Origin: Bacteroidales bacterium
GTDB lineage: Bacteria; Bacteroidota; Bacteroidia; Bacteroidales; P3
DNA: 64,000 nucleotides
Reading direction: 5' to 3'
Assembly (NCBI GenBank): GCA_017428115.1
Contig: JAFRRK010000052.1
Span: 884-64,883 of the forward strand
Within the stretch, counting starts at the first letter, position 1. Every line of letters begins with the position of its first letter. Of the stretch, positions 1 through 14,926 are shown piece by piece. Both the position numbers and the translations under genes were made by a program. The notes beneath the pieces are model-generated. The model was not told the origin of the DNA and searched no databases. It saw only the letters and a list, made by a program, of their open reading frames with translations.

Positions 1-347
1 TTTGAGAGGTCGCGATTCTTGCCGGTGAGCTGCTGGAGGAAATTCTCCATTGTGGTGTCGTAGCGTAGCTGCAAGGCTGCGTAGGCGCGATTGATGGATG
101 TCACCGTGGCCTCGCACTCCTGTCGTGCCGCCGTCATATCGCTCAGCGACATGGTCATGGCCTGACCTTGGCGCACTAGCTCGGCATTCTCTTCGCGGAG
201 TTCCTGAAGCTCTTGTTTGGCAAGGGTGAGGCTCTTCGAGGCCTGAGTATAGTGCGACTGTAATGCCTCATACTCACGCATCGAAACACACGACGACAAT
301 GTCAAGGCACACAATAGGAAACATACAAGTTTTTTCTGTTGGTTCAT
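1..347 (-). CDS. putative lipoprotein, N-terminal part only (gene runs off the window start); possibly OmpA-family-like
   Basis: Own translation of the minus strand from ATG at 347: MNQQKKLVCFLLCALTLSSCVSMREYEALQSHYTQASKSL..., open to position 1. It has a signal peptide with a lipobox-like LSSC, followed by Q/E/L-rich coiled-coil-like sequence. It is absent from the ORF track because there is no stop inside the window. Confidence 0.5.
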   Translation of the reverse strand, partial: MNQQKKLVCFLLCALTLSSCVSMREYEALQSHYTQASKSLTLAKQELQELREENAELVRQGQAMTMSLSDMTAARQECEATVTSINRAYAALQLRYDTTMENFLQQLTGKNRDLS

Positions 348-429
348 ATATTAGTAAAGTATTAAAGAATGCGAAAGAACATCTTTTTCTTTTTAGTTTT
401 AAAAAGTAACGTGATTTAAAATAAAATCG

Positions 430-437
430 TATCTTTG
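430..437 (+). promoter_or_regulatory. Bacteroidetes-type -7 box (TATCTTTG) upstream of the ClC gene
   Basis: Exact match to the TAnnTTTG consensus, about 20 nt upstream of ATG 458. Confidence 0.45.
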
Positions 438-457
438 CCCGATTTAATTTTCGGCAC

Positions 458-2257
458 ATGACATTCGCAGATCTCTATAAGAGGCTACATATTTGGCGTT
501 TGCGGCACATATCAGAGCAGTCGTACCTGTTGCTGCTGAGTGTCGTGGTAGGTGTGTTTAGCGGTCTGGCGGCCGTGTTGCTCAAAACGGTGGTACACCT
601 TTCGGGACAACTGGTGATGAATTTCGGCAATACACACGACTTCACCGGCGGGGGCAACATACTCACCTTCGTCACTCCATTGGTAGGCATACTGCTAACC
701 ATTCTATTTGTGCGTTTTGTGGTGCGTGGCGACATTGGCCACGGTATTCCCAGCGTGCTGCTCTCCATCTCCCGACACAAAGGCAAGCTGCCACCCCGCA
801 ACATGTATTCATCGCTTGTTGCCTCCACCCTCACGGTTGCCTTTGGTGGCAGCGTGGGTCTAGAGGCGCCCATTGCCTCTACTGGCAGTGCCATAGGCTC
901 CAACGTGGGCCGATTCTTCCATGTAAGCCCCCGTGGTGTAAAGCTGTTGCTAGGCTGCGGTGCTGCGGGAGCCATTGCCGGCATCTTCAAGGCCCCATTG
1001 GCGGGAGTGCTGTTCACGGTGGAGGTGCTTATGTTCGACATGACCATGACCACTGCCGTACCCTTGCTCATCTCCGCCCTATCTGCCTCAACCGTAGCCT
1101 ACTTCCTGATGGGGCACGACGTCCAGTTTGCCTTTAAAGTCACAGAGGACTTCACCCTACACCAAATACCGTTCCTCATGGTGCTGGGGGTATTTTGCGC
1201 CTTTAGCTCTGTCTACTTCCTGCGTTGCACCGACTGGGTGGAGTCGTGGTTCTCGAGGCGTAAGAACTGGATGCGTAAATGGCTGGTTGGCGGCGTGGTG
1301 CTGGGAGTGATGATATTCCTCTTCCCACCGCTGTATGGCGAAGGATACTGGGCGCTCACCGAGCTGCTCAATGGTGCCAACGACGACGCACTGTTTGCCA
1401 ACAGCGTTTTTAACATATTCCGAGACAACTCGTGGGTAGCCCTTGCCATCCTATTTGTGCTCATACTGCTCAAGCCCATAGCCACAGCCACTACCATAGG
1501 CAGCGGCGGCGTGGGCGGCACCTTTGGTCCCTCACTTGTTGTAGGCGGCCTCAGCGGCTACTTCATCGCTGCCCTGGGCAACCAATTGGGACTGCCCCCG
1601 CAGTCGACCGCCAATTTCGCCCTCGTGGGCATGGCGGGAGTGATGACCGGCGTGATGCACGCCCCTTTCATGGGGGTATTCCTCATTGCCGAAATCACTG
1701 GCGGCTATGCCCTTATGATACCGCTCCTTATCACTTCCACAGTCACCTACATCTGTGTACAGCCCTTTGAGAATCATTCCATCTATGCTCGCAAACTGGC
1801 TCTTAAGGGAGACCTTATGACCCACAATAAAGATGCCTCAGCCTGGCACCTAATGGACCTCCAGAAACTTATCGAAACCAACTTTGCCACCGTACCTGAA
1901 GATGGCACTCTACGCGATATCGTTGAAGCCATCAAACACTCTAAGCGCAACCTCTTCCCCGTTGTAGATGCCGAAGGCAAATTCCTCGGCCTAATTGTCA
2001 TGGACGACCTACGACAGACCATTTTCGAGACAGAGTTATACGACAAACTGACTGTCAAGGAGCTGATGATGACTTTCGAAGACAAAGACATAGTCCATTC
2101 CAGCGAGTCACTTGTAGATGTGGTCAACAAGTTCCAACTAAGCAACCGCTACAACCTCATCGTAGTTGACGACAGCGGACACTATCTCGGCTTCCTCTCA
2201 CGTGCCAACACCTTCTCCGCCTACCGCCGATTCATCTCCCAAAGTTCAGAAGAATAG
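458..2257 (+). CDS. ClC family voltage-gated chloride channel with C-terminal CBS pair
   Basis: 599 aa and polytopic. It has ClC selectivity-filter-like motifs (GGSVGLEAP, GIFKAPLAG, GVGGTFGPSL) and a C-terminal tail of about 140 aa with a CBS-like repeat (NLFPVVDAEGKFLGLI ... NLIVVDDSGHYLGFLS). Confidence 0.9.
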   Translation: MTFADLYKRLHIWRLRHISEQSYLLLLSVVVGVFSGLAAVLLKTVVHLSGQLVMNFGNTHDFTGGGNILTFVTPLVGILLTILFVRFVVRGDIGHGIPSVLLSISRHKGKLPPRNMYSSLVASTLTVAFGGSVGLEAPIASTGSAIGSNVGRFFHVSPRGVKLLLGCGAAGAIAGIFKAPLAGVLFTVEVLMFDMTMTTAVPLLISALSASTVAYFLMGHDVQFAFKVTEDFTLHQIPFLMVLGVFCAFSSVYFLRCTDWVESWFSRRKNWMRKWLVGGVVLGVMIFLFPPLYGEGYWALTELLNGANDDALFANSVFNIFRDNSWVALAILFVLILLKPIATATTIGSGGVGGTFGPSLVVGGLSGYFIAALGNQLGLPPQSTANFALVGMAGVMTGVMHAPFMGVFLIAEITGGYALMIPLLITSTVTYICVQPFENHSIYARKLALKGDLMTHNKDASAWHLMDLQKLIETNFATVPEDGTLRDIVEAIKHSKRNLFPVVDAEGKFLGLIVMDDLRQTIFETELYDKLTVKELMMTFEDKDIVHSSESLVDVVNKFQLSNRYNLIVVDDSGHYLGFLSRANTFSAYRRFISQSSEE

Positions 2258-2277
2258 CCTCGCCACCCCTCCGTTTT

Positions 2278-2615
2278 TAACCCAAATCGGTCATTAGGGT
2301 TTATGCCAGATTAGTATTTGTTTCGAGCAGATTGACCTCATCGCTGGCGAACGTTGCGTAAAGCGAGAGCAGAGGAAGCTTGCTTGCTATGCCGAGCCAC
2401 AGCAATGTCAACGAAGTTAAGGCGTAGCGGGCTACGGCGAGACAGGGATGTGGACAAGATGCCGAACGTTACCCAATGCGAGAGCATAGCAAGCTTGCTT
2501 GCTATGCCGAGCCCAAGTAACGTCATGGAGCATAAAGAAATGCTGATATGGCATAAACAGACCTGAAAAAAGGAGATTAATTGAAAAGTCGGTCTAATGA
2601 CCGATTTGGGTTTAA
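2278..2615. repeat. 338-bp element bounded by inverted repeats (MITE-like or long-hairpin) with an internal ~65-nt direct repeat
   Basis: The termini TAACCCAAATCGGTCATTAG (2278-2297) and CTAATGACCGATTTGGGTTTAA (2594-2615) are reverse complements with one indel. The internal direct repeats at about 2347-2410 and 2461-2525 each contain the palindrome AGCAAGCTTGCT. The element lies between convergent genes. Confidence 0.6.
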
Positions 2616-2827
2616 CAAAAAAAGGTCGATTTTCTGGATTATAATCCAAAAATTATATATTTTTTTGGATTACGTTCCAACAAATCCATTTTATTAGTTG
2701 TATTAGTGCGTAAGTCAAACAGTCACTCATTTGAGAATCCGTTAGTCTTTGATGCGCCAAGTACTAACACGTTAACTTCAAAAAGACTCACACATTAACA
2801 AGTTAACACATTAACACATTCCTCCGC

Positions 2828-3739
2828 TTATTCTTCATCATTCCCATACTTGTCCAACATTGCCTTTATCTCTTCTTTCATCTCATCCCGTAGTGATTCG
2901 GGTTTCAGCACCTCCACCCTGCTGCCCAATGAGAGTATCTTCTGTTTAAAGTCAAAGGTCGGGCGCACACGAACCGAGAAGACCGAGTATTCCTCATTCC
3001 GTCTCAGTTCCAGTTGGGAGTGATGAAGAGGGAGCGACCGCAGATAGTTGGCCTGAAAAGCATCCACTTTTATCCAAACACTTTCGACGTTCACGTCATC
3101 CCCAAGAATGATGCCATAGCTGTCTTTAAACATCTCCTCCACATCGAAATCGGGGTCTCTCGTGTATGTCTCCTCTTGGATTTCAATATTGCTAATCCTA
3201 TCCAGCGCAAAGATATGATGCGGCATATCCTCAGTGTACTTGCCGACTACGTACCAGCGACGTTCAAACATCTTCAACGCATGGGGTCGGAAGTCGGTGT
3301 AGTGCGTTACATTGTCGCGCCAGTATGCGCCATAGTCGAACCTCATCATCCGCAACTCCTTCATGGCCTGGAGTATGGCGGGCAGTGGGTCGGTGTGACT
3401 CTCTTCTATGGCGATATATTGTGCCAACTCTTGGCTGTCCATCAGAATCCGGTTCACAGCAATAGAGTTGAGCATCCACTGACGGAAATAGCCGTTCTTG
3501 CCGCTGTCGGCTATACGATAACGGTACACGCCGCCCGACACGTAACATTCAATTTCTATTCCGAAAATATCCTTTATCTCCTCGCGGTGACGATGGAATG
3601 TGCGGTCAGAATAAAGGCGACCACCATTAATATCGTCATTGAAATAATAAGCATCGGCAATCTGCTGGAGCGTCAACCCCACATTGCCCGCCTTCATCAC
3701 AGTATCGACAAGCCAGATATATTTCTTCAAGGGTGTCAT
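2828..3739 (-). CDS. WYL-domain transcriptional regulator (wHTH-WYL-WCX architecture, BrxR/CapW-like)
   Basis: The ORF 2828..3940 is trimmed to the internal ATG at 3739 (MTPLKKYIWLVDTV...). The N-terminal HTH-like segment is LTLQQIADAYY. The central region ...ALKMFERRWYVVGKY...IFALDRI is typical of WYL domains. Length is about 303 aa. Confidence 0.8.
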   Translation of the reverse strand: MTPLKKYIWLVDTVMKAGNVGLTLQQIADAYYFNDDINGGRLYSDRTFHRHREEIKDIFGIEIECYVSGGVYRYRIADSGKNGYFRQWMLNSIAVNRILMDSQELAQYIAIEESHTDPLPAILQAMKELRMMRFDYGAYWRDNVTHYTDFRPHALKMFERRWYVVGKYTEDMPHHIFALDRISNIEIQEETYTRDPDFDVEEMFKDSYGIILGDDVNVESVWIKVDAFQANYLRSLPLHHSQLELRRNEEYSVFSVRVRPTFDFKQKILSLGSRVEVLKPESLRDEMKEEIKAMLDKYGNDEE

Positions 3740-3755
3740 AGGTTGTTCTTGTTGA

Positions 3756-4079
3756 TTAAAAAAAATGAAATCGACATAGAGACTTGCCAGCAATTGCACC
3801 ATGTTGAGTGGTATGTACAAATTTTGCGACAACCACTTTACCTTGCCTTCCGCCTTCAGTTTGAACTTGTGCAATTTTTGCACAGGTTGCCTCCCGTTCC
3901 AACTCTTCTGCCTTGTAGATATTGTTGATATGACGAACAATAGAAGTTCTGTCAGTCAGGAAAAGCTCTGCCATCTGTGCTTGTGTCATCCACACAGTTT
4001 CATTCTCAAACCTCACGTCAATCTGTGTGTTGCCATCGGCAGTCTGGTAGATGATTATCTTGTCATTAACGTTCTCCAT
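3756..4079 (-). pseudogene. RhuM-family (virulence protein RhuM-like) N-terminal stub
   Basis: The first ~79 aa (MENVNDKIIIYQTADGNTQIDVRFENETVWMTQAQMAELF...IAQVQTEGGR) match the N-terminus I recognise from ~330-aa RhuM-family proteins. The remainder is unrelated sequence and the ORF stops at 107 aa. Confidence 0.6.
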
Positions 4080-4124
4080 AATCCTATAACGTCACCTGTA
4101 TCATTTTATTGCATGGCAAAAACC

Positions 4125-4484
4125 TCATTTCCCCTCTATTACCTCTTGCATATCTTGCACCAAACAACGCAATGTCTTAAGGCGTTTGATTTGTCGGGAA
4201 TACTCATCCTTGTCAAAATAGAGTGGCACCTCGTGAAAAGGCAGCTGCAATGCGAAGAGTGCTTGCTCCCGTGTAACGTGGTACCGTTTCATCATTGCTT
4301 TGATACGTTCCCTGTTATCGGGAAACTCTACAACCATGTCGGCAATCACCTGCACACTAAAACCTATCATCTCACAAACTTCCGAACATTCAATTACCTT
4401 ATCCAAAAACTCTGGCGTCACCTCTTCTGTAACCGTACACGGGGTATCTAATCCCCGAAATCTTGATTCTGCATATAGTTTCAT
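4125..4484 (-). CDS. hypothetical 119-aa protein, co-transcribed downstream of the ParE-like gene
   Basis: Clean ORF whose start lies 17 nt after the ParE-like stop on the same strand. I recognise no motif. Confidence 0.55.
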   Translation of the reverse strand: MKLYAESRFRGLDTPCTVTEEVTPEFLDKVIECSEVCEMIGFSVQVIADMVVEFPDNRERIKAMMKRYHVTREQALFALQLPFHEVPLYFDKDEYSRQIKRLKTLRCLVQDMQEVIEGK

Positions 4485-4501
4485 AATGTCAATCTTGTTT
4501 G

Positions 4502-6400
4502 TTAATATGGTGTATTGATGTCATTGTCTTCAACGCGTAAATTGCGCATTATAAACTCGCGACGTTCTGGAGTATTCTCGCCCATATAGAATGAGAGAAC
4601 GCTTTGAGTGTCGAAGTCTTCTGGAAGTACTACAGGGTCGAGTCGCATGTCTTTGCCTATAAAAGTCTTAAACTCCTCAGGGGATATTTCTCCAAGCCCC
4701 TTGAATCGGGTAATCTCAGCATTGGGAGTATTTTGGATAGCTACGATGCGCTCTTCATTGGTATAACAATAAGTATTCTTTTGCTTGTTACGTACACGGA
4801 AAAGAGGAGTCTGTAAGATGAATACATGGCCTGTCCGAATGAGCTCTGGATAAAAACGAAGGAAGAATGTGAGCAAGAGAAGCCGGATATGCATACCATC
4901 AACATCGGCATCAGTGGCTATAACAACTCTATTATATCGTAAATTCTCAATACCGTCATAAACGGCAAGAGCATTGTGCAGGAGAAGAAGTTCCTTGTTG
5001 TTGAAAATATCCTCTATGGTTTTCAGATTATAGGTATTCTTGGTTTTCCCACGTAAAGAGAAAACTGCCTGAGTTTTGACATCACGGCTTTGTGTGATAG
5101 ACCCTGAGGCCGATTCACCTTCAGTAATGAAGATGGTACTTTCCAAACGTAGGGTGTGATGGGTGTTGTAATGTATGTGGCAGTCGCGTAGCTTGTTGTT
5201 ATTTAGAGCGACTCTTTTACTATTATCTTTTGCAACCCTTTTAATATCCGAAATTTGCTTACGTTCCTTCTCGTTGGCGTTGATTTTTTGAAGGAGTGCA
5301 TTAGCTGTCTCGTTGTGAATATGAAGATAGTTATCAAGTTGGCGTTTGAGAACATCATACACATAGGTTTTTAACAGAGGACTGTCGTTGCTCCCGTCAA
5401 CCTTGTTGGGTTCGAGACGTGTGGAACCTAATTTGGTTTTAGTTTGTGCCTCAAATACGGGTTCTTGTATACGTATACATAAGGCACAGACGAGACCTTG
5501 ACGGATGACCTCAGGTGAGTAGTCTTTCTTAATAAAATCTTTCACTACACGGGCATAAGCCTCTCGGAAGGCACTCTGGTGGGTACCTCCCTCGGTAGTA
5601 TGCTGTCCGTTAACAAACGAATAGTAATAATCGTTACTTTGGCCATTGATATGAGTGAAGGCGGCTTCAAAGTTGTCCTCCTTGATGTGAATGATGGGAT
5701 AGAGGGATTTCGATTGAAGGTTGTTCTCCAACAAGTCGAGTAGGCCGTTCTTTGAGTAATAGCGCCGACCATTATAGTAAATAGTGAGACCGCTGTTAAG
5801 ATAACAATAATACCAGATACGCCTTTCAATATGCTCCTCAACAAAGTGATAGTCGCCAAATAGTTTTCGGTCAGGGATGAATTCAACAAGTGTTCCAGAT
5901 TCGGTATTCGTGTCGGGAACGATGCCGCTGTCACTGACAAGATTGCCATCAGCGAATTGTGCGCAGCGACACATACCATCTCTGAACGACTGCACTTTGA
6001 AATAACTACTGAGGGCATTTACCGCTTTGATACCTACTCCATTCAAACCAATAGACTTTTTAAAAACCTTGCTGTCATATCTGGCCCCTGTATTGAGCTT
6101 TGAGATTGCATCAACAAGTTTGCCTAATGGAATACCACGACCATAGTCACGGATGCTAACACACCTCTCGTTAAGGTTAACTGTAATATCTATCTTCTTT
6201 CCGAATCCTGATGTAAACTCGTCAATAGAATTGTCCATCACCTCCTTGATTAGTACATAGATGCCGTCGTCATGGGATGAACCGTCACCGAGCTTGCCTA
6301 TATACATACCTGGACGGAGACGAATATGTTCCATATCTTCAAGGTGAATAATGGTATCGTCATTATACGCAATTGCGGAGAGGCTGTCAGTCTGTTCCAT
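4502..6400 (-). CDS. parE: type IIA DNA topoisomerase subunit B, ParE (topo IV B)-type, all catalytic motifs intact
   Basis: Start trimmed to ATG 6400 (MEQTDSL...). Motifs: HIRLRPGMYIGKLGDG (ParE-type N-terminus), GHKL N-box EVMDNSIDE, G1 DYGRGIP, G2 GLNGVGIKAVNALS, QTK loop EAQTKTKLGS, TOPRIM ITEGESASGS and ATDADVDGMHIRLLLLTFF, and KGLGEISPEEF. Confidence 0.9.
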   Translation of the reverse strand: MEQTDSLSAIAYNDDTIIHLEDMEHIRLRPGMYIGKLGDGSSHDDGIYVLIKEVMDNSIDEFTSGFGKKIDITVNLNERCVSIRDYGRGIPLGKLVDAISKLNTGARYDSKVFKKSIGLNGVGIKAVNALSSYFKVQSFRDGMCRCAQFADGNLVSDSGIVPDTNTESGTLVEFIPDRKLFGDYHFVEEHIERRIWYYCYLNSGLTIYYNGRRYYSKNGLLDLLENNLQSKSLYPIIHIKEDNFEAAFTHINGQSNDYYYSFVNGQHTTEGGTHQSAFREAYARVVKDFIKKDYSPEVIRQGLVCALCIRIQEPVFEAQTKTKLGSTRLEPNKVDGSNDSPLLKTYVYDVLKRQLDNYLHIHNETANALLQKINANEKERKQISDIKRVAKDNSKRVALNNNKLRDCHIHYNTHHTLRLESTIFITEGESASGSITQSRDVKTQAVFSLRGKTKNTYNLKTIEDIFNNKELLLLHNALAVYDGIENLRYNRVVIATDADVDGMHIRLLLLTFFLRFYPELIRTGHVFILQTPLFRVRNKQKNTYCYTNEERIVAIQNTPNAEITRFKGLGEISPEEFKTFIGKDMRLDPVVLPEDFDTQSVLSFYMGENTPERREFIMRNLRVEDNDINTPY

Positions 6401-6434
6401 AATGATGTTGCTATTGTTTTTATATTTCAAAATG

Positions 6435-6442
6435 CAAAAATA
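6435..6442 (-). promoter_or_regulatory. -7 box (TATTTTTG on the minus strand) of the ParE-like operon
   Basis: TAnnTTTG match about 35 nt upstream of ATG 6400. Confidence 0.5.
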
Positions 6443-6449
6443 CAACAAA

Positions 6450-6472
6450 GGTGTGCCAAATCATGACACACC
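6450..6472 (-). promoter_or_regulatory. island operator copy 1 (23-bp inverted repeat)
   Basis: Plus strand reads GGTGTGCCAAATCATGACACACC. The half-sites GGTGTGCCA and TGACACACC are near-perfect reverse complements. The motif sits 7 nt upstream of the -7 box. Confidence 0.6.
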
Positions 6473-6563
6473 TCTATTTTATTTTCAATAGACTTGAAAC
6501 CTTACAGTGAATATATTCTCACAAGCAATTCTTGTTTTCCATTTTTTTTGTTCTTTCGAGATG

Positions 6564-6571
6564 CAAAAGTA
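6564..6571 (-). promoter_or_regulatory. second -7 box (TACTTTTG on the minus strand), part of a duplicated promoter module
   Basis: TAnnTTTG match with operator copy 2 located 7 nt upstream. Confidence 0.4.
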
Positions 6572-6578
6572 TAAAACG

Positions 6579-6601
6579 GGAGTGCCACATCGTAACGCAC
6601 C
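6579..6601 (-). promoter_or_regulatory. island operator copy 2
   Basis: Plus strand reads GGAGTGCCACATCGTAACGCACC. The architecture and the 7-nt spacing to a -7 box match copy 1. Confidence 0.55.
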
Positions 6602-6617
6602 TTAAAAATATACCTAA

Positions 6618-7052
6618 TTAGTACATGCTGGCTATTCTTTCTTCAACTAAAGACACTATTGATTCAGCATATTTTTTATGGATATAATCTATAATAGACG
6701 TAGTTTTGGTTCTCGGATTTGTCGTCCATATCAAATCTGCATCTAATAGATTAGTTATCCTTTCGACCTCATTACAGGTTGATCCAGTTGTTCGTGAAGC
6801 ACATACGATTATTTTACAACCATTATCTACTAACTCATTCAGTGTTTCTAACATCCTTGAGTTTGGGTCTCCTTGGCTTTCCACTCCAACGAGAACACCA
6901 TTAACATCCACAATACCAAGAATATCTCCATCATCTCTCAACACCTGAACTTTTCTTGTGTATTTCTTTGAAAGAACATTGTACACTTCTCTAACGGACG
7001 AGGACTTTCCTTGCTGGGCAGAACCCCTATTTACAATTACGAGTGGCTTCAT
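6618..7052 (-). CDS. small (144 aa) P-loop-like protein
   Basis: A Walker-A-like GSAQQGKSS lies at aa 10-18 right after a beta-strand-like MKPLVIVN. A hydrophobic strand KIIVCASR follows later. The start is 11 nt after the upstream gene's stop. Confidence 0.55.
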   Translation of the reverse strand: MKPLVIVNRGSAQQGKSSSVREVYNVLSKKYTRKVQVLRDDGDILGIVDVNGVLVGVESQGDPNSRMLETLNELVDNGCKIIVCASRTTGSTCNEVERITNLLDADLIWTTNPRTKTTSIIDYIHKKYAESIVSLVEERIASMY

Positions 7053-7063
7053 GCTGCTGATTT

Positions 7064-7783
7064 TTATATGATTATTTTTTTATAGAAATCATGAACTGCA
7101 TTTATCATGCCTTGGTCATCATGAGATCGAGGAGATGGGTGATAGTCATCTATTAATAACAGATTGCTCTCTTGGCAAAAATGGCACCATTCATTGTACT
7201 GCAAGAAAACCATATCTGAATAAATATCTTTTGCTATATTCAGCAGGGTTCCACTTCCTCCTCCACATACAATAACATTGGGATTTAATATATTTCTAAT
7301 TTGTTCAACGATGAAATTCCTATCTCTTTCGTAATATGACTGTATAGTACTATTATATACTTTACTTCCGCCTGATATTTTCTTAACATTTACAATTGCC
7401 ATAGGATATGGCAATGCTAACTTAAAATATTCTTCACGAGTTTTATCAAAAACTGGTAGATGATTGGCATCTACTTCGTTCAACGCCCAAATACATTTAA
7501 TCATCGTCATAAAAGTTCGATGGACATTTATCTCATCTGTATCATAGAACGCCCACTCTCGGTAATCACAACCAGGATTTCCATTCGTGTCTTTTACGAG
7601 AAATAACACTTTTCGCTTTGTATTAACCCATTTGTCAACTTCCGCATATTCATCTTTGCAATTCGGGTCTCTATAATATATAAGTCCATCAAAGCAGAAT
7701 ATTTTTTGCATCTCTTCGGAATATGAATTCTTCCAACGAATGCATAATTCTGTTTCCTTTTTATCAAATTCCTTTCCATTCAT
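7064..7783 (-). CDS. hypothetical protein with SMUG-like uracil-DNA-glycosylase-superfamily motifs
   Basis: VLFLVKDTNGNPG (aa 59-71) resembles UDG motif A (SMUG1 GMNPG). HPSPRS (aa 215-220, nt 7124-7141) resembles UDG motif B (HPSPRN or HPSPLS). The intervening strand NVIVCGGGSG fits the UDG alpha/beta topology. Confidence 0.6.
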   Translation of the reverse strand: MNGKEFDKKETELCIRWKNSYSEEMQKIFCFDGLIYYRDPNCKDEYAEVDKWVNTKRKVLFLVKDTNGNPGCDYREWAFYDTDEINVHRTFMTMIKCIWALNEVDANHLPVFDKTREEYFKLALPYPMAIVNVKKISGGSKVYNSTIQSYYERDRNFIVEQIRNILNPNVIVCGGGSGTLLNIAKDIYSDMVFLQYNEWCHFCQESNLLLIDDYHPSPRSHDDQGMINAVHDFYKKIII

Positions 7784-7803
7784 ATCTCATACTTGTTTTT
7801 AAA

Positions 7804-8163
7804 TCAATAATGATATTTCGTTGGGGGAATAATTATGCATGCTTCATTCTGATAAAAGAAACTACCTGATATCTTCTTGTTCTTAGGGGGTAATCCACAA
7901 CCTTTCTCATAAAAGGTCTCTGTTCGTATATCCCATGCAATTTCGGCATTTTCATCTTTAGTCAAAAAAAGAACCCGCAATGGACACTCGTTCCATAGTG
8001 TATTTTCTATACCACTCTCTTTCCGTCTCACTGCTTCATACTCATCAATGTAAAACACTCCTTTATTCATTATACCATCGAGAGCAAAACTATTGTCTTC
8101 TATCATTAACGACTTACGCCATTCTTCGAGAATTCTCTTATTCTCTGCAACGTAACCTTTCAC
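7804..8163 (-). pseudogene. decayed or truncated paralog of the SMUG-like gene
   Basis: GTG start, 119 aa. It aligns by eye with 7064..7783: FALDGIM vs FCFDGLI, RVLFLTKDENA vs KVLFLVKDTNG, KKISGSF vs KKISGGS. It lacks the NPG loop and the entire HPSP half. Confidence 0.45.
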
Positions 8164-8182
8164 ATAAACATATTATTGCTTA

Positions 8183-8205
8183 ATTGTGCCACATCGTGAC
8201 ACTCC
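8183..8205 (-). promoter_or_regulatory. island operator copy 3 (different promoter context)
   Basis: Plus strand reads ATTGTGCCACATCGTGACACTCC. Here a T-run plus GCA lies upstream of the operator, and only a degenerate TAATATGT lies 7 nt downstream. Confidence 0.5.
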
Positions 8206-8232
8206 TGCAAAAAAAATATTGATTGTTTTCTA

Positions 8233-9453
8233 TTACACTAGGCGTTCTACAACTTTCTTGAATATTTCGGTAGTCTTAACATAGTCATATTGATTATCAA
8301 CATAATTTACATATACCCATCGTAGTTTTTCTGTGTGACTATAAAGAATGTCTTTTGTTTTTTGTGTTAGTAAATCTGTATCTAACAATTGGCCGTGATC
8401 TAAATATTCCACTTGACAATATAATGTTGAATAATGTGAACTATCCTTGTCAATACTTACTAACACTTCCTTTCCATCAAAAGGAACTATTATTCTAACG
8501 TTATTATCGGACTCTTTCTGGTCTTTACGTATAGATGGATACTTCTCAATAATATCCATCTCTGCTTTTCGGATTATACCAAATCCAATCTCATCAAACA
8601 TTGACTGAATCTCTTTTTGGAATTCGATAATATTTAATAAGTTTGCTTTAATCTTAGACAAACACTCGTTATCATTTTGGCAATCTTTAAGATTGAAGTA
8701 ATTTAAGAGATAATTTTTTAATTCCATATTCACTGTTTTTTGAATTGTTCGTAAATCAAATAATCCTTCCAAATAATCAACATATTGTTGGACGGCATTT
8801 ATCAAATATGTGTCTTTATACTTTATGTTAGGCAAAATATTATTTTTTAGCCATGGAAGAATGTTCTCTTTGAATGACAAATTGATGAATCTGTCCTCGA
8901 AAAGCTGTTGGTAATCTCCCCACGATTGAGAATTTGGTTCACTTCCTGTTTGAGAAAGATAGACAACAAAGATATCATTCTGATTAAAAAGACATTCTTT
9001 TGTCTTATCAATATATCTTGACAGCTGAGCCTCTTGATCCTGAGCATTGTATATTTTGTTTTCAATAATTATTGCATAATTGCCGACCTTATCCCTTACC
9101 CACAAATCAATACGAGCTTCTTCTTGTGTGATTTTTGGCTTTTTAATATTAATCCTATCAAATTGCCTCGATTTGCTCTTTGACTTTATATAGTCAACAA
9201 ATGATTGAAGAATCTCCCATTCTTCTCGTTCATTGACAAATTGAAGAAGTTTCAGAAGAATTCGACTATGTCCATTCTCATTAATATGGAGTTCGTCTAT
9301 CACATTGATGTGATACGGCAACTTCAGTTTCTCCTCCATATAACGTTTATGGAATTCTCTTGAGAAATTAAGAAGTTTTTTATATTCAATATCAACTGCA
9401 TGTATAATATTTTCATACAGTTTTAAGGCGGATTCTATTTCTTTTTCCGACAT
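8233..9453 (-). CDS. PD-(D/E)xK nuclease family protein
   Basis: RIDLWVRD ... YAIIIENKIYN supplies the D...(D/E)xK signature (D-x(n)-E-N-K). 406 aa and AT-rich. Confidence 0.7.
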   Translation of the reverse strand: MSEKEIESALKLYENIIHAVDIEYKKLLNFSREFHKRYMEEKLKLPYHINVIDELHINENGHSRILLKLLQFVNEREEWEILQSFVDYIKSKSKSRQFDRINIKKPKITQEEARIDLWVRDKVGNYAIIIENKIYNAQDQEAQLSRYIDKTKECLFNQNDIFVVYLSQTGSEPNSQSWGDYQQLFEDRFINLSFKENILPWLKNNILPNIKYKDTYLINAVQQYVDYLEGLFDLRTIQKTVNMELKNYLLNYFNLKDCQNDNECLSKIKANLLNIIEFQKEIQSMFDEIGFGIIRKAEMDIIEKYPSIRKDQKESDNNVRIIVPFDGKEVLVSIDKDSSHYSTLYCQVEYLDHGQLLDTDLLTQKTKDILYSHTEKLRWVYVNYVDNQYDYVKTTEIFKKVVERLV

Positions 9454-9476
9454 GATATAATATGCTTTTCGTGTTG

Positions 9477-9484
9477 CAAAGATA
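9477..9484 (-). promoter_or_regulatory. -7 box (TATCTTTG on the minus strand) upstream of the PD-(D/E)xK gene, without an operator
   Basis: Exact TAnnTTTG match about 25 nt upstream of ATG 9453. Confidence 0.4.
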
Positions 9485-9524
9485 CAAACATTTTTTATAT
9501 CTGCGCATTATATATCAAATAATT

Positions 9525-11207
9525 TCAAGATAAAAAACCTATTCGTCTGGTCTTGGCATTGTTAATCCGCTCGTTGTCACAATGGGGAGTAAGTAGGTCG
9601 ATTGTGGGAACATTGTTGCCATGCAGGATGGCATCAATGGCATAGTGGCGGGCGATATTCTCTATCTGGCCACCGCTAAAGTCGTACCGCTCGGCCAAAA
9701 GGGTGGCATCAGTGTCGCTTAGGTCGGGCAGCAGTTCATGCCAGATGGCGGTGCGGGCTTCCACTGTGGGTTTGTCGAAGCGTATCTTATAGAGGAAACG
9801 CCGCTCGAAAGCATTGTCCATATTCTGAGCCAGATTGGTGGTGGCAATCAGTATTCCGTCGAGGGTCTCCATCTCCTGTAAGATGATGTTCTGAAGCGAG
9901 TTCTCCATTTTGTCCACAGCACGTTCCGCACCCTCCTGTCGCTTGCCGATGATGGCATCTGCCTCGTTGAAGAGGAGGATGGGCACAAGGGTACTCTCTT
10001 TGACCCGCTGGCGGTAGGTATCGAAGAGAGCTTTCATGTTCTTCTCACTCTCACCGACCCACTTGCTCTTCATCTCGGAGATGTCCACCTGCATAATGTC
10101 GCGACCTGTGCGTCGAGCCAATTGCATCACCGTCTCGGTCTTACCCGTGCCAGGAGCCCCATAGAAGAGACAGGTGAGTCCACAACGGAAACCCTGCTCT
10201 TGCAGACGGGCATGAATGTCGCTGTAGTTCTTCTCCTCAAGCAGACGGGCAAGGTCGTCAATACGATGGGTGATGTCGTCGGAGTAGAACAAGGTACGGG
10301 GCTTGATGTCGGAAGCGATAATCATATTGCGCAGCGTCCTCTTCCCTTCGAGTGAGGGAAGTTGCAACTCGTCAAGCAAGTCTCGCTTCGCCTTCATTGT
10401 AAGCCTATAATGCTCCTTGTCCCCCATCCCATCGTTGTTGCTATATTCTATCAAACCCAATCGTTGAAGAAAGTTGACACCCTGCTCCAATTCCGTCCTT
10501 ATCATACGCATATCCTTCTTGCTATATATGCAATCAATATCATGAAAGCCAATACAATCATCGTTGTTGTTCACAAACAGATGACAGAACATGATAAGCA
10601 GAACAAATTCTTTGTCAAATTCTTTGTCACATATTTCGGGGATGAGGTTCTGCACCTTTTGTACGAACAACAGCTGCTGGTTATGGTGAAACAGCATCTT
10701 GAAACGTTCTACGGCAGCAGCAATATCCATCTCATCATCGTCCACCCTGTCAACAATGTCTGCAAACTCATTGAACAACTCATGGCAGGTAAGCCCGGAA
10801 CAATCCTTGGGCGTGTAGGGCTTATTCACTTTGAAAGCTTCCACCACATCAATAGGCACACGGTAGGAAACAGAACTCGACGAACGGCTACGAACAATCA
10901 AACCTCGGCGTACCAACTCGTCAATATCATTCATATAACGGATCATCCGCGTGGTACGGCAGCCCGTATATTTTGCAATGTCGCTTGCCTCGATTCTTGA
11001 GTCATCACTTTGGTCAAGAAACAACGCCATCATCACGCTCTGCTCTTTTGTGAGGCTGAGCTTGTCCGACAGATGCTTAATAAAACGCGCTGCCTTGCAA
11101 TAAAACTCTGGCGACAACTGCGATTCTTTTGCCAATTCCACGATGTTCTCGACTGCCGAAAGTAAGTCTAACTTTCTTTTCCCTTGTGTTTTACTTGCTG
11201 TTTCCAT
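9525..11207 (-). CDS. classical-clade AAA+ ATPase with an N-terminal region of about 340 aa carrying two wHTH-like modules
   Basis: Start trimmed to ATG 11207 (METASKTQGK...). Walker A is FYGAPGTGKTE. Walker B region is ILLFNEADAI (Asn where Asp is usual). The SRH/Arg-finger region is NLAQNMDNAFERRF. wHTH-like segments are IAKYTGCRTTRMIRYMNDIDELVRRGLIV and GVNFLQRLGLIEY. Confidence 0.85.
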   Translation of the reverse strand: METASKTQGKRKLDLLSAVENIVELAKESQLSPEFYCKAARFIKHLSDKLSLTKEQSVMMALFLDQSDDSRIEASDIAKYTGCRTTRMIRYMNDIDELVRRGLIVRSRSSSSVSYRVPIDVVEAFKVNKPYTPKDCSGLTCHELFNEFADIVDRVDDDEMDIAAAVERFKMLFHHNQQLLFVQKVQNLIPEICDKEFDKEFVLLIMFCHLFVNNNDDCIGFHDIDCIYSKKDMRMIRTELEQGVNFLQRLGLIEYSNNDGMGDKEHYRLTMKAKRDLLDELQLPSLEGKRTLRNMIIASDIKPRTLFYSDDITHRIDDLARLLEEKNYSDIHARLQEQGFRCGLTCLFYGAPGTGKTETVMQLARRTGRDIMQVDISEMKSKWVGESEKNMKALFDTYRQRVKESTLVPILLFNEADAIIGKRQEGAERAVDKMENSLQNIILQEMETLDGILIATTNLAQNMDNAFERRFLYKIRFDKPTVEARTAIWHELLPDLSDTDATLLAERYDFSGGQIENIARHYAIDAILHGNNVPTIDLLTPHCDNERINNAKTRRIGFLS

Positions 11208-11233
11208 ATCAATAATCTTTTTATATCCGACTG

Positions 11234-11241
11234 CAAAAATA
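11234..11241 (-). promoter_or_regulatory. -7 box (TATTTTTG on the minus strand) of the AAA+ gene
   Basis: TAnnTTTG match about 27 nt upstream of ATG 11207. Confidence 0.5.
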
Positions 11242-11248
11242 CGACAAT

Positions 11249-11271
11249 GGTATGCCATTTCGTGACACACC
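11249..11271 (-). promoter_or_regulatory. island operator copy 4
   Basis: Plus strand reads GGTATGCCATTTCGTGACACACC, located 7 nt upstream of the -7 box as in copies 1 and 2. Confidence 0.6.
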
Positions 11272-11363
11272 CAATAATTTATTTATTATTAAAAAAAAAG
11301 ATAACTTATATGCTTTGTCGGCAAAACGGCCAAGCATTCAGGGATTCTTATAGTTCTTAATTG

Positions 11364-12407
11364 TCAATCCTTGATGACAAACGCCTGTTGCTCGCCGTCG
11401 ATGTTGAATTGGAGGGTGGCACCGTCGGGGCGGACGTCGATAGTGACGGGTGCGCCCATCACCAAGGGGAGATTCACCTTGCCATGGCCTGCAGGGAGGC
11501 CACAGAGGAGGGGAATCTTGTATTTTTCAATATATTGATGCAGCATTGCCTCGACACTCTCGTAGGAAAACTCTCTCTCACAATCGGTAAAGTCACCCAA
11601 CACAATGCCCTTGCAGCGGTCTAACACCCCGTTCATGGCAAGGATGGTGAACTGGCGGTCGATATTGTGCATGCCCTCCTCTACCTCTTCGATAAAGAGG
11701 ATGAGGTCGTTTCCAATAGTGGCATCGGCCTGAGTGCCAAGGTTGGGCGCAAAGGTGCAGATGTTGCCACCTACCAGTATTCCACTGGCATGGCCCACGA
11801 TGTTTTGGGGATGCGGCGGCAACTCGTAGCGAGGCACCTGCCCCATTAGCAGGTCGCGCAACAGAGTGCTATTCAAATCGGTGCCGCCTTTGGCCAAGAA
11901 CATGCTCATCGTACCGTGGATGCTCATCACGCCCGCCCGAGCCAACAAGCCATGTAGTGTTGTGACGTCGCTGAACCCCACCAGCCACTTAGGGTGTGCC
12001 CTCCACTCGGCAAGAGGTATTTGGTCGATATAATGAATAGTGCCATACCCACCACGATTGCAAATAATTGCCTTGATGCTGGTATCGGCCAACGCCCAAC
12101 GGAGGTCGCTCACCCTTTCTTCCACAGTGCCGGCATATCTGCCCAAGTAGACCTTGCCGACATTGGGCCCTACCACGGGCACCAACCCCCATCCTCGCAG
12201 TACCTCGGCGGCTTTTTCCACCTCATCCATCGACTTAAAATATGAAGGTGACACAAGTGCCACCCTATCGCCCACCTTCAGATAGTCGGGCTGCATGCAA
12301 CGCAGTGCGACAGAACCCCTAATGGGCTTGCCCTGACCATCTGCACCGATTGGCGACAACGTGAATAGCAAGCCAACCATCAATAGAATAAAACCATTAT
12401 ATTTCAT
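11364..12407 (-). CDS. LD-carboxypeptidase (peptidase S66, LdcA-like), secreted
   Basis: Start trimmed to ATG 12407 (MKYNGFILLMVGLL..., signal peptide). S66-like segments are VALVSPS, GGYG, GFSDVTTLH and the C-terminal GHG. Confidence 0.8.
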   Translation of the reverse strand: MKYNGFILLMVGLLFTLSPIGADGQGKPIRGSVALRCMQPDYLKVGDRVALVSPSYFKSMDEVEKAAEVLRGWGLVPVVGPNVGKVYLGRYAGTVEERVSDLRWALADTSIKAIICNRGGYGTIHYIDQIPLAEWRAHPKWLVGFSDVTTLHGLLARAGVMSIHGTMSMFLAKGGTDLNSTLLRDLLMGQVPRYELPPHPQNIVGHASGILVGGNICTFAPNLGTQADATIGNDLILFIEEVEEGMHNIDRQFTILAMNGVLDRCKGIVLGDFTDCEREFSYESVEAMLHQYIEKYKIPLLCGLPAGHGKVNLPLVMGAPVTIDVRPDGATLQFNIDGEQQAFVIKD

Positions 12408-12539
12408 ATCTTTATGATTAAAAATAAGACCCTTACAACCATGCAAAGACAATTGCCCAAACATCCATCCTAGAGAAAGGGACAACACCAGCTAAAGCGA
12501 TGCAAAGATAGGCATTTTATTTCAATCCATAAAAAAAAC

Positions 12540-13046
12540 TAAAGTTTGACAAGCCATTTTACTTCAAAAAGTGACATGTTAGAAGCTGTTTCTTAGTAAT
12601 ATTTTCAATAAAAATCAGCGGGTTGCCAACATGCCTGTTATAACGTGACACCCCAAGGGGCGATACATGCATCCATCCCCATTGTCATTGTCATCGTCAT
12701 CATCGCACACTTTACTTCGTGGCATTGCTTTGGCTCGGCAAAAGAAAGCTCGGTTTCTTTGCTCTCGCCCTGTACAACGTTGTGCCACTTCTTTTTCTAA
12801 AAGTGGCACCCTAATTATTGCCCTTTTTCAGAATAATTATAACTAAAGGACTGCAGCACCCACCTCAACCACACACCATACCTTCGTCGTGCCTTCGCCG
12901 TGCCTTCGTTTCCGGAAGCGAAAACAGGGCGAAGGCAGGAACAAGTCAGCCAGTCTCCGTCACAAAACAACCCAACCGAAGACCGGAAAAAGGAAAACGT
13001 AGGGCTAAAAACAACTCGGAATGCAAGCCTGATTATACTTGTCAAC
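12540..13046 (+). repeat. intergenic repeat family, copy A (full length)
   Basis: Alignable by eye to the reverse complement of 30096-30775 and, over its 3' half, to 37385-37642. It contains the hairpin GTGCCACTT...AAGTGGCAC and tandem 11-mers CCTTCGTCGTG/CCTTCGCCGTG/CCTTCGTTTCC at 12881-12913, followed by a CGAAGGC complement. Confidence 0.75.
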
Positions 13047-13160
13047 AAAAATATAAGCTACATGAGAATACACTCACAGTCATGCCAATCATCACTTATA
13101 GCATTCGATTGCATTGAGATTGAGAAGAAGTTTTTTTTTTGGTATATTGCTTTTTTTTTG

Positions 13161-13168
13161 TATCTTTG
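13161..13168 (+). promoter_or_regulatory. -7 box (TATCTTTG) upstream of the M28 peptidase gene
   Basis: TAnnTTTG match preceded by a T-run, downstream of repeat copy A. Confidence 0.4.
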
Positions 13169-13243
13169 CTTGATTGTATCGTGTGTAAGCTGCACACCAA
13201 TTAATTTATTGTCAGAAAAATATAAAAAATATATAATAACAAA

Positions 13244-14926
13244 TTGTTAATGAAAATGAAGAAATTCATTGCCCTATTTGCCATTTTGGCGATGCTGTCG
13301 CCTTTTGGAGCCTGCCCACAGGCTAATGCCCAAAGCAAGAAAAAAGACAAGACCGAGAAGAAAGCCAAGGGAGACAAGAAAGGCAAAGCCAAAACAAAGA
13401 AAGAGGCCGCAGCAGAGGCTGAAGCGGCAAAAGCAGAAGCCATAGCGGCAGCAAAGGCTGCTGCCGAGGCACGCGAATTGGAGCTGGCATCGATGGACAC
13501 ACTGTTGAGAGCCAACACCGACACGCTGATGAAACATATACGCACACTTTCGTCGTCGCAGTACGAGGGGCGTATGGCCGGCTCGAAGGCCTATTTGGAG
13601 GCCGCCGAGTATTGCGCCGATGTGCTGGCATCGTATGGAGTAAAACCTTTCGACGGAGAATGGGGGCAATATTTTCAGGTAGAATACAACGAGATAGAGA
13701 ATTGTAATTTTGACACATACGTAAATGACAACGACACACGCACGCGATATGTGCTGGGACGCGACTATGTGTGCTCGAGTATGACGGGCCGCGGCTATAC
13801 CAATGCTCCGGTAGTGTTTTGTGGATGGGGTATAGACAACCTTGCCTTCGACGAATATGCCAAAGTGGATGTGCAAGGCAAGATAGTGCTCTGCCTATCG
13901 GGGGTTCCGGAGTTTCTGCCTGGAAATGTGGCAGGTCGCTACACCACCCTGCGCCAAAAGGCCGAAGTGGCGATGAAACACGGTGCCGTAGGACTAGTGT
14001 GTATCAACATGTCGGAAAGCTGCCGTCCTTATGAGGTGCAGCATCATGCTTATTGTGGCGAGGGTGCCCACCAGGCAACATTCCCCGTGGTGCAGCCCAC
14101 CCGCGACATGGGGGAAGCACTGTTGAATAATGAGCAGATGACGCTAGATTCGGTATACGAGGCTTTGCAGAACGACATGACGCCACAATCGTTCCACCTA
14201 CGCAAGAAATTTGAGATAAACATCAACGCCAAGTATCACCCCAAGGCCACGACAGCCAATGTGGTGGGAGTGCTGCCCGGCGTGGACGACAAGATGAAAC
14301 ACGAATATATCGTTGTGGGAGCACATCTAGACCATGTGGGTATACAGGGGAGCACATGCCTGTTTCCTGGTGCTGACGACAATGCGAGCGGCGTGGCAGC
14401 AGTGCTTGAATGCGCCCGATTGCTGACGAGTTATGCGCCTGCCGAGATTGAGTATAACAAACGCTCAATAGTGTTTGTGCTCTTCTCTGGCGGCGAGCTG
14501 GAGCAGTTGGGGTCGAGCATATTTGTGTCGAACTTCCCCAAACTGAGAAATGTAGAATGCTTTATCAATGCAGAGTGCATCGGCTCGGGCGATAGCATTA
14601 ACGTGCTTGGCAACAAACGCTTTCCCCAGCTATGGAATATAGCATCGCATAACGACTCAATCTCCACCAAGTCGCTGCTAAGAGGCTACAGAACAATGCC
14701 TCGAGGCGATGCAGCGCCATTTGCACAGATAGGCATTCCCTCAATAGTGTTTACCAACCACATGGGTGGTACTTACGACCACGTGCCCAGCGATATTTCG
14801 GAGAATATCAACCGCGACGTGCTCACCAAACGTGCCAGCCTGATGGCCGAGGTGGTATACGAACTGTCATTGGGCGACTACCAAGGACGGTCGTTCCGCT
14901 CGAAACGGTTCAAGTTTGAAGAATAG
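13244..14926 (+). CDS. M28 family metallopeptidase with PA domain and a Lys/Ala/Glu-rich N-terminal linker
   Basis: Signal peptide. M28 zinc-ligand contexts are VGAHLDHVG and GADDNASG. The true start may be 2-4 codons downstream (MKMKKF). Confidence 0.8.
   Translation: MLMKMKKFIALFAILAMLSPFGACPQANAQSKKKDKTEKKAKGDKKGKAKTKKEAAAEAEAAKAEAIAAAKAAAEARELELASMDTLLRANTDTLMKHIRTLSSSQYEGRMAGSKAYLEAAEYCADVLASYGVKPFDGEWGQYFQVEYNEIENCNFDTYVNDNDTRTRYVLGRDYVCSSMTGRGYTNAPVVFCGWGIDNLAFDEYAKVDVQGKIVLCLSGVPEFLPGNVAGRYTTLRQKAEVAMKHGAVGLVCINMSESCRPYEVQHHAYCGEGAHQATFPVVQPTRDMGEALLNNEQMTLDSVYEALQNDMTPQSFHLRKKFEININAKYHPKATTANVVGVLPGVDDKMKHEYIVVGAHLDHVGIQGSTCLFPGADDNASGVAAVLECARLLTSYAPAEIEYNKRSIVFVLFSGGELEQLGSSIFVSNFPKLRNVECFINAECIGSGDSINVLGNKRFPQLWNIASHNDSISTKSLLRGYRTMPRGDAAPFAQIGIPSIVFTNHMGGTYDHVPSDISENINRDVLTKRASLMAEVVYELSLGDYQGRSFRSKRFKFEE

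Follow-up and report, generated by a model that had tools for sequence, protein, structure and literature searches.

Why does a bacterial chromosome carry an intact gene for the B subunit of topoisomerase IV among variable, defence-type cassettes, with no A subunit beside it? The question is posed by a ParE gene in a stretch of a rumen Bacteroidales chromosome (contig JAFRRK010000052.1 of assembly GCA_017428115.1, positions 884 to 64,883), 64,000 nucleotides long and referred to here as the window, with all positions counted from its first letter. The explanation favoured here, and held to be probable, is that this ParE is an accessory, alternative B subunit carried as exchangeable cargo in a defence- or conflict-type island, where it would pair with the ParC of the host and bypass an inhibited ParE. 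A canonical parE is very likely present elsewhere in the same genome; we infer it from empty sites, the cargo-slot behaviour of the gene, its base composition and the otherwise universal canonical synteny. Among the readings offered by an original prediction made from the nucleotide sequence alone, that of a second, accessory B subunit is the best fit, while the canonical copy in the same genome that it presupposes is deduced rather than observed.

An intact ParE outside the canonical locus

4502–6400, minus strand: island-type ParE, a type IIA topoisomerase B subunit of 632 aa with intact catalytic motifs and Pfam domains

The ParE open reading frame (ORF) starts at the ATG at 6400, the mechanical ORF reaching as far as a TTG at 6448, and the 632-aa product contains the Pfam domains HATPase_c, DNA_gyraseB (82.8 bits), Toprim and DNA_gyraseB_C. 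Everything that defines a type IIA B subunit (GHKL ATPase, QTK transducer, Toprim and GyrB C-terminal domain) is present, and the motifs kept are the N-box EVMDNSIDE, DYGRGIP, GLNGVG, AQTKTKLG, E427 in EGESA and DADVDG, the first three being common to all island ParE copies. The description of the gene as an intact, non-decayed B subunit with all its GHKL, QTK and TOPRIM motifs agrees with these results. The nearest solved structure is that of Streptococcus pneumoniae ParE (4juo; E 2e-76, full-length alignment), and Bacteroides homologues 57% identical to the window ParE carry the annotation topoisomerase IV subunit B. On NCBIfam models, the window ParE scores ~395–400 bits against the gyrB subfamily model (cut-off 740) and 289–312 bits against the parE equivalogs TIGR01055 and TIGR01058, below their cut-offs of 723–900; since canonical Bacteroidales ParE score alike on the parE models (273–314 bits), the low scores are a lineage-wide trait and not peculiar to the window copy. 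The ParE toxin of ParDE modules (RelE/ParE fold, ~100 aa) was considered and rejected, only GyrB-type domains being found by Pfam; the shared name is coincidental, and the original prediction had likewise called the two unrelated. In another island copy (L091; P0004, 1282–3168), AATK replaces the QTK loop, the Gln being lost and the Lys retained.

No GyrA/ParC domain was found by Pfam in any large ORF of the 64-kb window, in line with the reported lack of an A subunit near ParE. Because canonical parE of the order is likewise not located beside parC, the missing neighbour is not unusual on its own.

Homologues were sought among 5.8 billion proteins and, by a genome scan, in species-representative genomes (67 loci). 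The protein search returned hundreds of ParE ~80% identical to the window copy. The canonical locus, on contigs of up to 690 kb, has the order coaD-AsmA/DUF748-parE-hyp243-hyp247-serS, and 66 of the 67 species-representative loci share this context or parts of it (e.g. parE-hyp243 with coaD nearby), the exception being L011. The conserved core of this synteny, with coaD/AsmA upstream and hyp243 downstream, is absent from the window and from L001, L011, L091 and L104. In these off-locus copies (the window; L001/L002, 82% identical to it; L011, 94%; L091, 81%; L104, 94.6%), the neighbours are a 119-aa gene (p119) and RhuM/WYL genes in place of coaD/AsmA/hyp243. The notion of a housekeeping parE at a conserved locus is contradicted by the off-locus position of the window copy and by two syntenic relatives without parE at the site. 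The window is part of a 133.7-kb contig, on which none of the top 120 ParE homologues is located. A metagenome-assembled genome contig, L046, was considered as the source of the canonical ParE of the host lineage through the empty-site relative L087–L089, and was rejected (GC 0.47 vs 0.56, probably different organisms). Canonical parE (L004–L076) is nearly always followed by a conserved, uncharacterised hypothetical gene of ~243 aa, 42–80% identical across families (e.g. L004, 11986–12717). The L011 copy, 94% identical to the window ParE, lies on a 2.6-kb contig (GCA_017617575.1, JAFZVY010000095.1) binned in a metagenome-assembled genome labelled Bacteroidaceae, whose canonical ParE would be only ~50% identical; it represents either a cross-family transfer or a mis-binned contig.

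Island copies are 76–81% identical to the nearest canonical clade, whose own members are 88–95% identical to one another. In neighbour-joining bootstrap analysis, the island copies (the window and five others) were monophyletic in 200 of 200 replicates, on a long stem, and grouped with the nearest canonical clade in 194 of 200, nested inside the canonical diversity of the order. Tajima relative-rate tests gave 63–93 unique changes in island copies versus 12–32 in canonical ones (p 1e-4 to 1e-15; the result listed for the window ParE is 74 versus 20, p~1e-8), the island rate being 3–6 times the canonical rate. The ratio of nonsynonymous to synonymous substitution rates (dN/dS) between island copies is 0.08–0.095, with dS up to ~1.2, and to judge from these values the island ParE is under purifying selection. 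Its gene has a GC content of 42.3% and a third-position GC content (GC3) of 0.43, against 0.51–0.71 in the core genes of the window, so that its placement in AT-richer DNA was correctly recognised; four island copies have GC3 values of 0.43–0.47 versus 0.72–0.89 in canonical genes.

Positions at least 95% conserved in 182 canonical sequences and replaced in at least five of seven island copies were taken as fixed changes. There are 15 of these (V99I, Q114K, N183D, Y190H/F, K437Q, P453T, K461T, Y466F, N472L, I480V, D481Y, N491K/R, Y527F, T542N and D626N), concentrated in Toprim (residues 437–542). A further island change, EGDSA to EGESA, affects a position which, from established numbering and the alignment to 4juo, we take to be equivalent to E. 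coli GyrB D426. Fic toxins AMPylate a Tyr (E. coli ParE Y105 / GyrB Y109) that is described as conserved across prokaryotes (PMC7479194). The window ParE has Phe at this position (F113, 6064–6066), as do all Bacteroidales ParE examined, both canonical (L004–L076) and island copies, and the whole Bacteroidales ParE lineage may be refractory to Fic AMPylation. An island-specific Fic resistance of the window ParE is ruled out, since canonical Bacteroidales ParE have the same Phe.

Insertion site, junction motif and exchangeable slot

458–2257: CLC channel, core gene
2258–13243, no strand: interval between the core genes CLC channel and M28 peptidase; no ParE or island there in relatives; includes the S66 gene
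2828–3739, minus strand: WYL-WCX transcription regulator, 303 aa, at the right island end (Pfam WYL and WCX, PADLOC WYL)
3756–4079, minus strand: truncated RhuM, a 107-aa N-terminal fragment (PADLOC PDC-S05)
4125–4484, minus strand: p119, a 119-aa orphan core protein of the island, downstream of ParE and separated from it by 17 nt (4485–4501)
6414–6473, minus strand: proximal junction motif, a hairpin GGTGTGTCA-N5-TGGCACACC plus TTTGTTGTATTTTTGCAT, ending 14 nt upstream of the ParE ATG
6543–6602, minus strand: distal junction motif, 73% identical to the proximal 60-nt copy
6618–9453, minus strand: nested very low-GC insertion of four genes (GC3 0.29–0.33)
6618–7052, minus strand: 144-aa gene (p144), nested low-GC insertion
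7064–7783, minus strand: 239-aa gene (p239), nested low-GC insertion
7804–8163, minus strand: 119b gene (p119b), nested low-GC insertion
8183–8206, minus strand: junction motif upstream of the p119b-p239-p144 cassette
8233–9453, minus strand: PD-(D/E)XK_4 gene (Pfam PDDEXK_4, PADLOC candidate PDC-S26)
9525–11207, minus strand: 560-aa AAA+ ATPase (Pfam AAA) whose ATPase domain is IetA-like and whose N-terminal domain is unassigned
11249–11272, minus strand: junction motif upstream of the AAA ATPase gene
11364–12407: S66 LD-carboxypeptidase
13250–14926: M28 peptidase, core gene

From CLC to M28, the ~11 kb consist of WYL, the RhuM fragment, p119, ParE, four very low-GC genes, the IetA-like AAA ATPase and the S66 peptidase. 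The same site is empty in a relative of the window (L087–L089; FtsY 89% and ABC protein 84% identical), where CLC lies 220 bp from M28 in the order OmpA-CLC-M28-ABC and parE is absent, and parE is also absent from the site in a second relative, L107 (CLC-sigma70-...-M28). In the sister species L104, the site is occupied by 227 aa-SprT-like-272 aa-ParE-p122-AAA_14-RhuM/Fic-WYL, and L001 has AAA-x-ParE-p119-AAA_14-RhuM-WYL at a different chromosomal location, next to genes for DarT and AbiEii. The four low-GC genes at 6618–9453 are an insertion within the island insertion, between the AAA ATPase and ParE.

Each of the two 60-nt copies upstream of ParE contains a 9-bp inverted repeat and a TTGTATTTTTGCAT box. 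Four copies of a 23-nt inverted repeat (GGTGTGTCAyGAnnTGGCACACC), each with TTTGTTGTATTTTTGCAT behind it, are present in the window. All of them lie within the island, on the coding strand, against an expectation of none by chance. The junction motif is found ahead of cassettes in L001, L090, L093–L096 and L104, and no match to it was found in L091, L098–L103, the canonical loci or the empty site. L001 and L104 have the proximal sequence ahead of ParE, and L094–L096 have it ahead of DUF932; the tandem distal-proximal pair also stands before the DUF932 gene in L094–L097. There, DUF932 takes the place of ParE between a p239-family gene and p119; the slot between the tandem motif and p119 is filled by ParE in the window and in L104. 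Because DUF932 fills the identical slot in sister islands, ParE is one among several alternative cargoes.

The junction hairpin is preserved in 95.6% of cells; two of its pairs show compensation, G.U pairs are tolerated, and a T-rich run comes next. As a predicted structure, the hairpin is no less compatible with an intrinsic terminator for the upstream cassette than with a protein operator. The box downstream of the hairpin resembles the Bacteroidetes TAnnTTTG -7 element. The motif could be a combined terminator and promoter, an operator or a site where cassettes are exchanged by recombination, and the tandem pair may be what remains of a lost cassette. Of the operator-controlled, duplicated promoter envisaged by the original prediction, the duplication stands (two 60-nt copies), the operator being equally interpretable as a terminator hairpin.

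Proposed role of the island ParE and its alternatives

Sequence comparison establishes the foreign base composition, monophyly and faster evolution of the island ParE, an insertion absent from relatives, intact catalysis motifs and purifying selection. In the mechanism proposed here, the gene would descend from canonical ParE in one lineage of rumen Bacteroidales and would now be carried as a cassette in a small hypervariable island, each cassette lying behind a hairpin-plus-promoter junction motif; in its fullest forms, the island would begin with an IetA-like AAA ATPase, continue with variable cassettes and p119, and end with RhuM/Fic and the WYL regulator. The genome would retain its own canonical parE elsewhere, while the island ParE, transcribed from the island's own junction promoter, would assemble with chromosomal ParC into an alternative topoisomerase IV. 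A B subunit alone cannot cleave DNA, the catalytic Tyr belonging to the A subunit. As its catalytic residues are conserved and a B subunit needs an A subunit, the island ParE most probably pairs with chromosomal ParC, and a conflict-related role, whether in target bypass or replacement or in sensing, is suggested by the defence-type context, the cassette promoter of its own and the fixed DNA-gate/Toprim changes. The benefit would lie not in housekeeping but in bypassing or replacing the normal B subunit when a ParE inhibitor originating from a phage, a competitor or a drug blocks it. A possible, more tentative extension is target-replacement immunity, in which the alternative B subunit, whose expression infection or DNA damage might induce, might sustain decatenation or sense the attack when a factor encoded by a phage or competitor inhibits the host ParE.

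Several points weigh against this interpretation. The canonical parE of the same genome was not found in the 64-kb window or the fetched loci, and both ParC pairing and insensitivity to inhibitors are predictions. The island-specific substitutions include no known resistance change, the D-to-E replacement at the GyrB-D426 position is conservative at a site where canonical lineages vary too (D or L), and the lower GC content could itself cause part of the amino-acid acceleration. No model of PADLOC-DB 2.0 matches ParE or p119. Between the window and the sister species L104, ParE (94.6%) is about as conserved as the flanks (83–95%), so that within the genus it behaves like a stably inherited gene.

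The island context is compatible with ParE being a component of a defence system proper, that is, a decoy or guard for invader inhibitors of ParE/GyrB or an inducible 'poison' B subunit, an abortive-infection effector that would set host topoisomerase IV against DNA, perhaps in concert with the AAA ATPase or p119. Its location in a defence-type cassette island adjoining a WYL regulator, the presence of an AAA ATPase gene ahead of ParE in the window, L001 and L091, and the clade-specific fixed Toprim changes would all be in keeping with such a role. It is nevertheless unlikely, since the ATPase and Toprim catalytic residues are fully conserved, which favours a working enzyme over a pure decoy, and since ParE occurs without the AAA gene in L104, p119 is not specific to ParE and PADLOC gives no match.

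Little probability is given to the idea that this is the only parE of the genome, either a relocated housekeeping gene or a foreign copy that replaced the native one, with the island grown around it. The gene is fully intact and under strong purifying selection, it is kept at the same site in the sister species L104 with a conservation similar to that of the flanks, and the canonical copy in the window genome is a putative one. Against this, the site lacks ParE in two relatives, which must therefore have parE elsewhere, unrelated cargo fills the slot in sister islands, GC3 is far below that of every core gene of the window, and the canonical synteny is otherwise universal in the order. The phylogeny, with at most 81% identity to canonical ParE and a 3–6-fold accelerated rate, likewise speaks against this part of the original prediction.

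It is also improbable that ParE serves a mobile element by recruiting host ParC to decatenate or segregate replicating phage-like or satellite copies. Many large phages have a type II topoisomerase of their own (T4 gp39/52/60), and one related island array adjoins phage head genes in an IMG/VR contig, but the window island is devoid of integrase, replication and structural genes, and no relative of this ParE was found in IMG/VR. A plasmid or phage origin of ParE was rejected, as the only matches were canonical Bacteroides-type ParE of 54–58% identity on probable chromosomal fragments, with none in IMG/VR. A neutral, hitch-hiking duplicate with no distinct role would suit islands that gather assorted genes, and the role of ParE is itself a proposed one, but dS above 1 between island copies, a dN/dS of ~0.09, intact motifs and fixed clade-specific substitutions indicate long-term maintenance by selection and make it very improbable.

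Compared with canonical Bacteroidota ParE, the window copy has the same four-domain architecture and motifs, sub-threshold NCBIfam scores and Phe at the Fic-target Tyr; it differs in lying off the coaD-AsmA-parE-hyp243 locus, in an insertion, in its 3–6-fold rate and 15 replaced positions, in a GC3 of 0.43 versus 0.72–0.89, and in being preceded by the island cassette motif. Its closest analogues appear to be the GyrB(R)/ParY(R) self-resistance subunits of aminocoumarin-producing Streptomyces, which are extra functional B subunits encoded away from the housekeeping gene and without an A subunit of their own. Like these, the window ParE would be an extra B subunit without its own A subunit, presumed to use the resident one; unlike them, it occurs in a different phylum, in a defence-type cassette island ending in a WYL gene, and no biosynthetic genes were found near it by Pfam among window ORFs of at least 150 aa and smaller island ORFs. 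No known aminocoumarin-resistance change is present in the window ParE, the R of the RDG motif and the D of DYGRGIP being unchanged. WYL-regulated defence islands are known, with BrxR/CapW-type regulators and PafBC/DriD-type WYL sensors. The window resembles them in that a WYL-WCX regulator edges variable, defence-like cassettes, whereas its regulator stands at the 3' end of a co-directional array with a repeated motif between cassettes, one of which copies a subunit of an essential housekeeping enzyme. Phage T4-type topoisomerase II (gp39/gp60/gp52) likewise includes a B-type subunit borne by a mobile element, with weak PDB similarity (8ylu, 121 bits), but the window ParE is far closer to cellular ParE, is without an A subunit and lies outside a phage genome.

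Type IIA B subunits are targets of aminocoumarins, quinolones (through the quinolone pocket), Fic toxins and phage-encoded inhibitors, and the setting suggests that the island copy is a spare or inhibitor-insensitive version of such an essential drug or toxin target. To our knowledge, the only extra insensitive B subunits described are those encoded by self-resistance genes of antibiotic producers, and literature searches turned up no ParE or type IIA B-subunit paralogue in defence islands. If the proposed role is correct, a diverged yet functional parE cassette circulating in defence-type islands of abundant rumen bacteria would extend the self-resistance principle to inter-microbial and phage conflict, a copy of an essential enzyme subunit would act as a mobile immunity cassette, and island parE would flag a possible mobile target-replacement resistance gene. 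The compact cassette island, with its repeated junction motif, is a gene-exchange platform open to study.

p119 and other genes of the island

The 119-aa ORF that starts 17 nt downstream of ParE, described earlier as having no recognisable motif, gave no match to Pfam, NCBIfam, PADLOC or PHROG families and none in a PDB profile search. Its relatives form only about 20 clusters among the 5.8 billion proteins; dN/dS is 0.17–0.34, and homologues at 47–55% identity retain the length and the invariant residues, features that mark p119 as a real gene. Its AlphaFold2 model (predicted local distance difference test, pLDDT, 67) has no significant fold match, and mimicry of the GyrA/ParC N-terminus was rejected on this basis (Foldseek E at least 0.3, template modelling score ~0.3, root-mean-square deviation ~8 A, model pLDDT 67). 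Copies 89–92% identical to p119 are present in the ParE-less islands L093–L097 and a 55% homologue in the ParE-less L090, while in L091 three genes separate p119 from ParE and p119 lies directly upstream of the WYL gene. As it occurs without or apart from ParE, p119 belongs to the core genes of the island rather than being a partner specific to ParE, and the functional ParE/119-aa pair that had been put forward, with p119 as a dedicated partner, was given up.

Among the neighbours of ParE, PADLOC-DB 2.0 matches are IetA, PDC-S26, PDC-S05 and WYL. The AAA ATPase, which scores 96 bits on NCBIfam IteA (below the cut-off) and 102 bits on PADLOC IetA, is a frequent left-end gene of the island family, with homologues in L001, L091, L099–L101 and L103 and none in L104. 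The WYL regulator, conserved at the island end in L001, L090, L091, L093 and L104, weakly matches PafBC and further transcription regulators with WYL domains in the PDB. Full-length RhuM-Fic fusions of 331–334 aa occur in the sister islands L090, L093 and L104; the possibility that ParE compensates for or excludes RhuM-Fic was rejected, as L104 holds both ParE and an intact RhuM-Fic. In the sister island L095 (3606–6878), restriction genes for an McrBC component and Mrr_cat form cassettes behind the same junction motif. In L103 (IMG/VR UViG_3300031867_001825, 1–8723), an AAA-226-p117-cREC_REC-114-175 array adjoins a phage major head gene (phrog_29), and prophages may carry or adjoin some islands of this family. 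Elsewhere in the window, at 45482–50311 on the plus strand, a 1609-aa protein combines a sacsin-type GHKL N-terminus with an SF1 helicase C-terminus (AAA_11/12/19/30); with a GC content of 35% and GC3 of 0.33, its gene is a second foreign-looking insertion and probably serves in defence.

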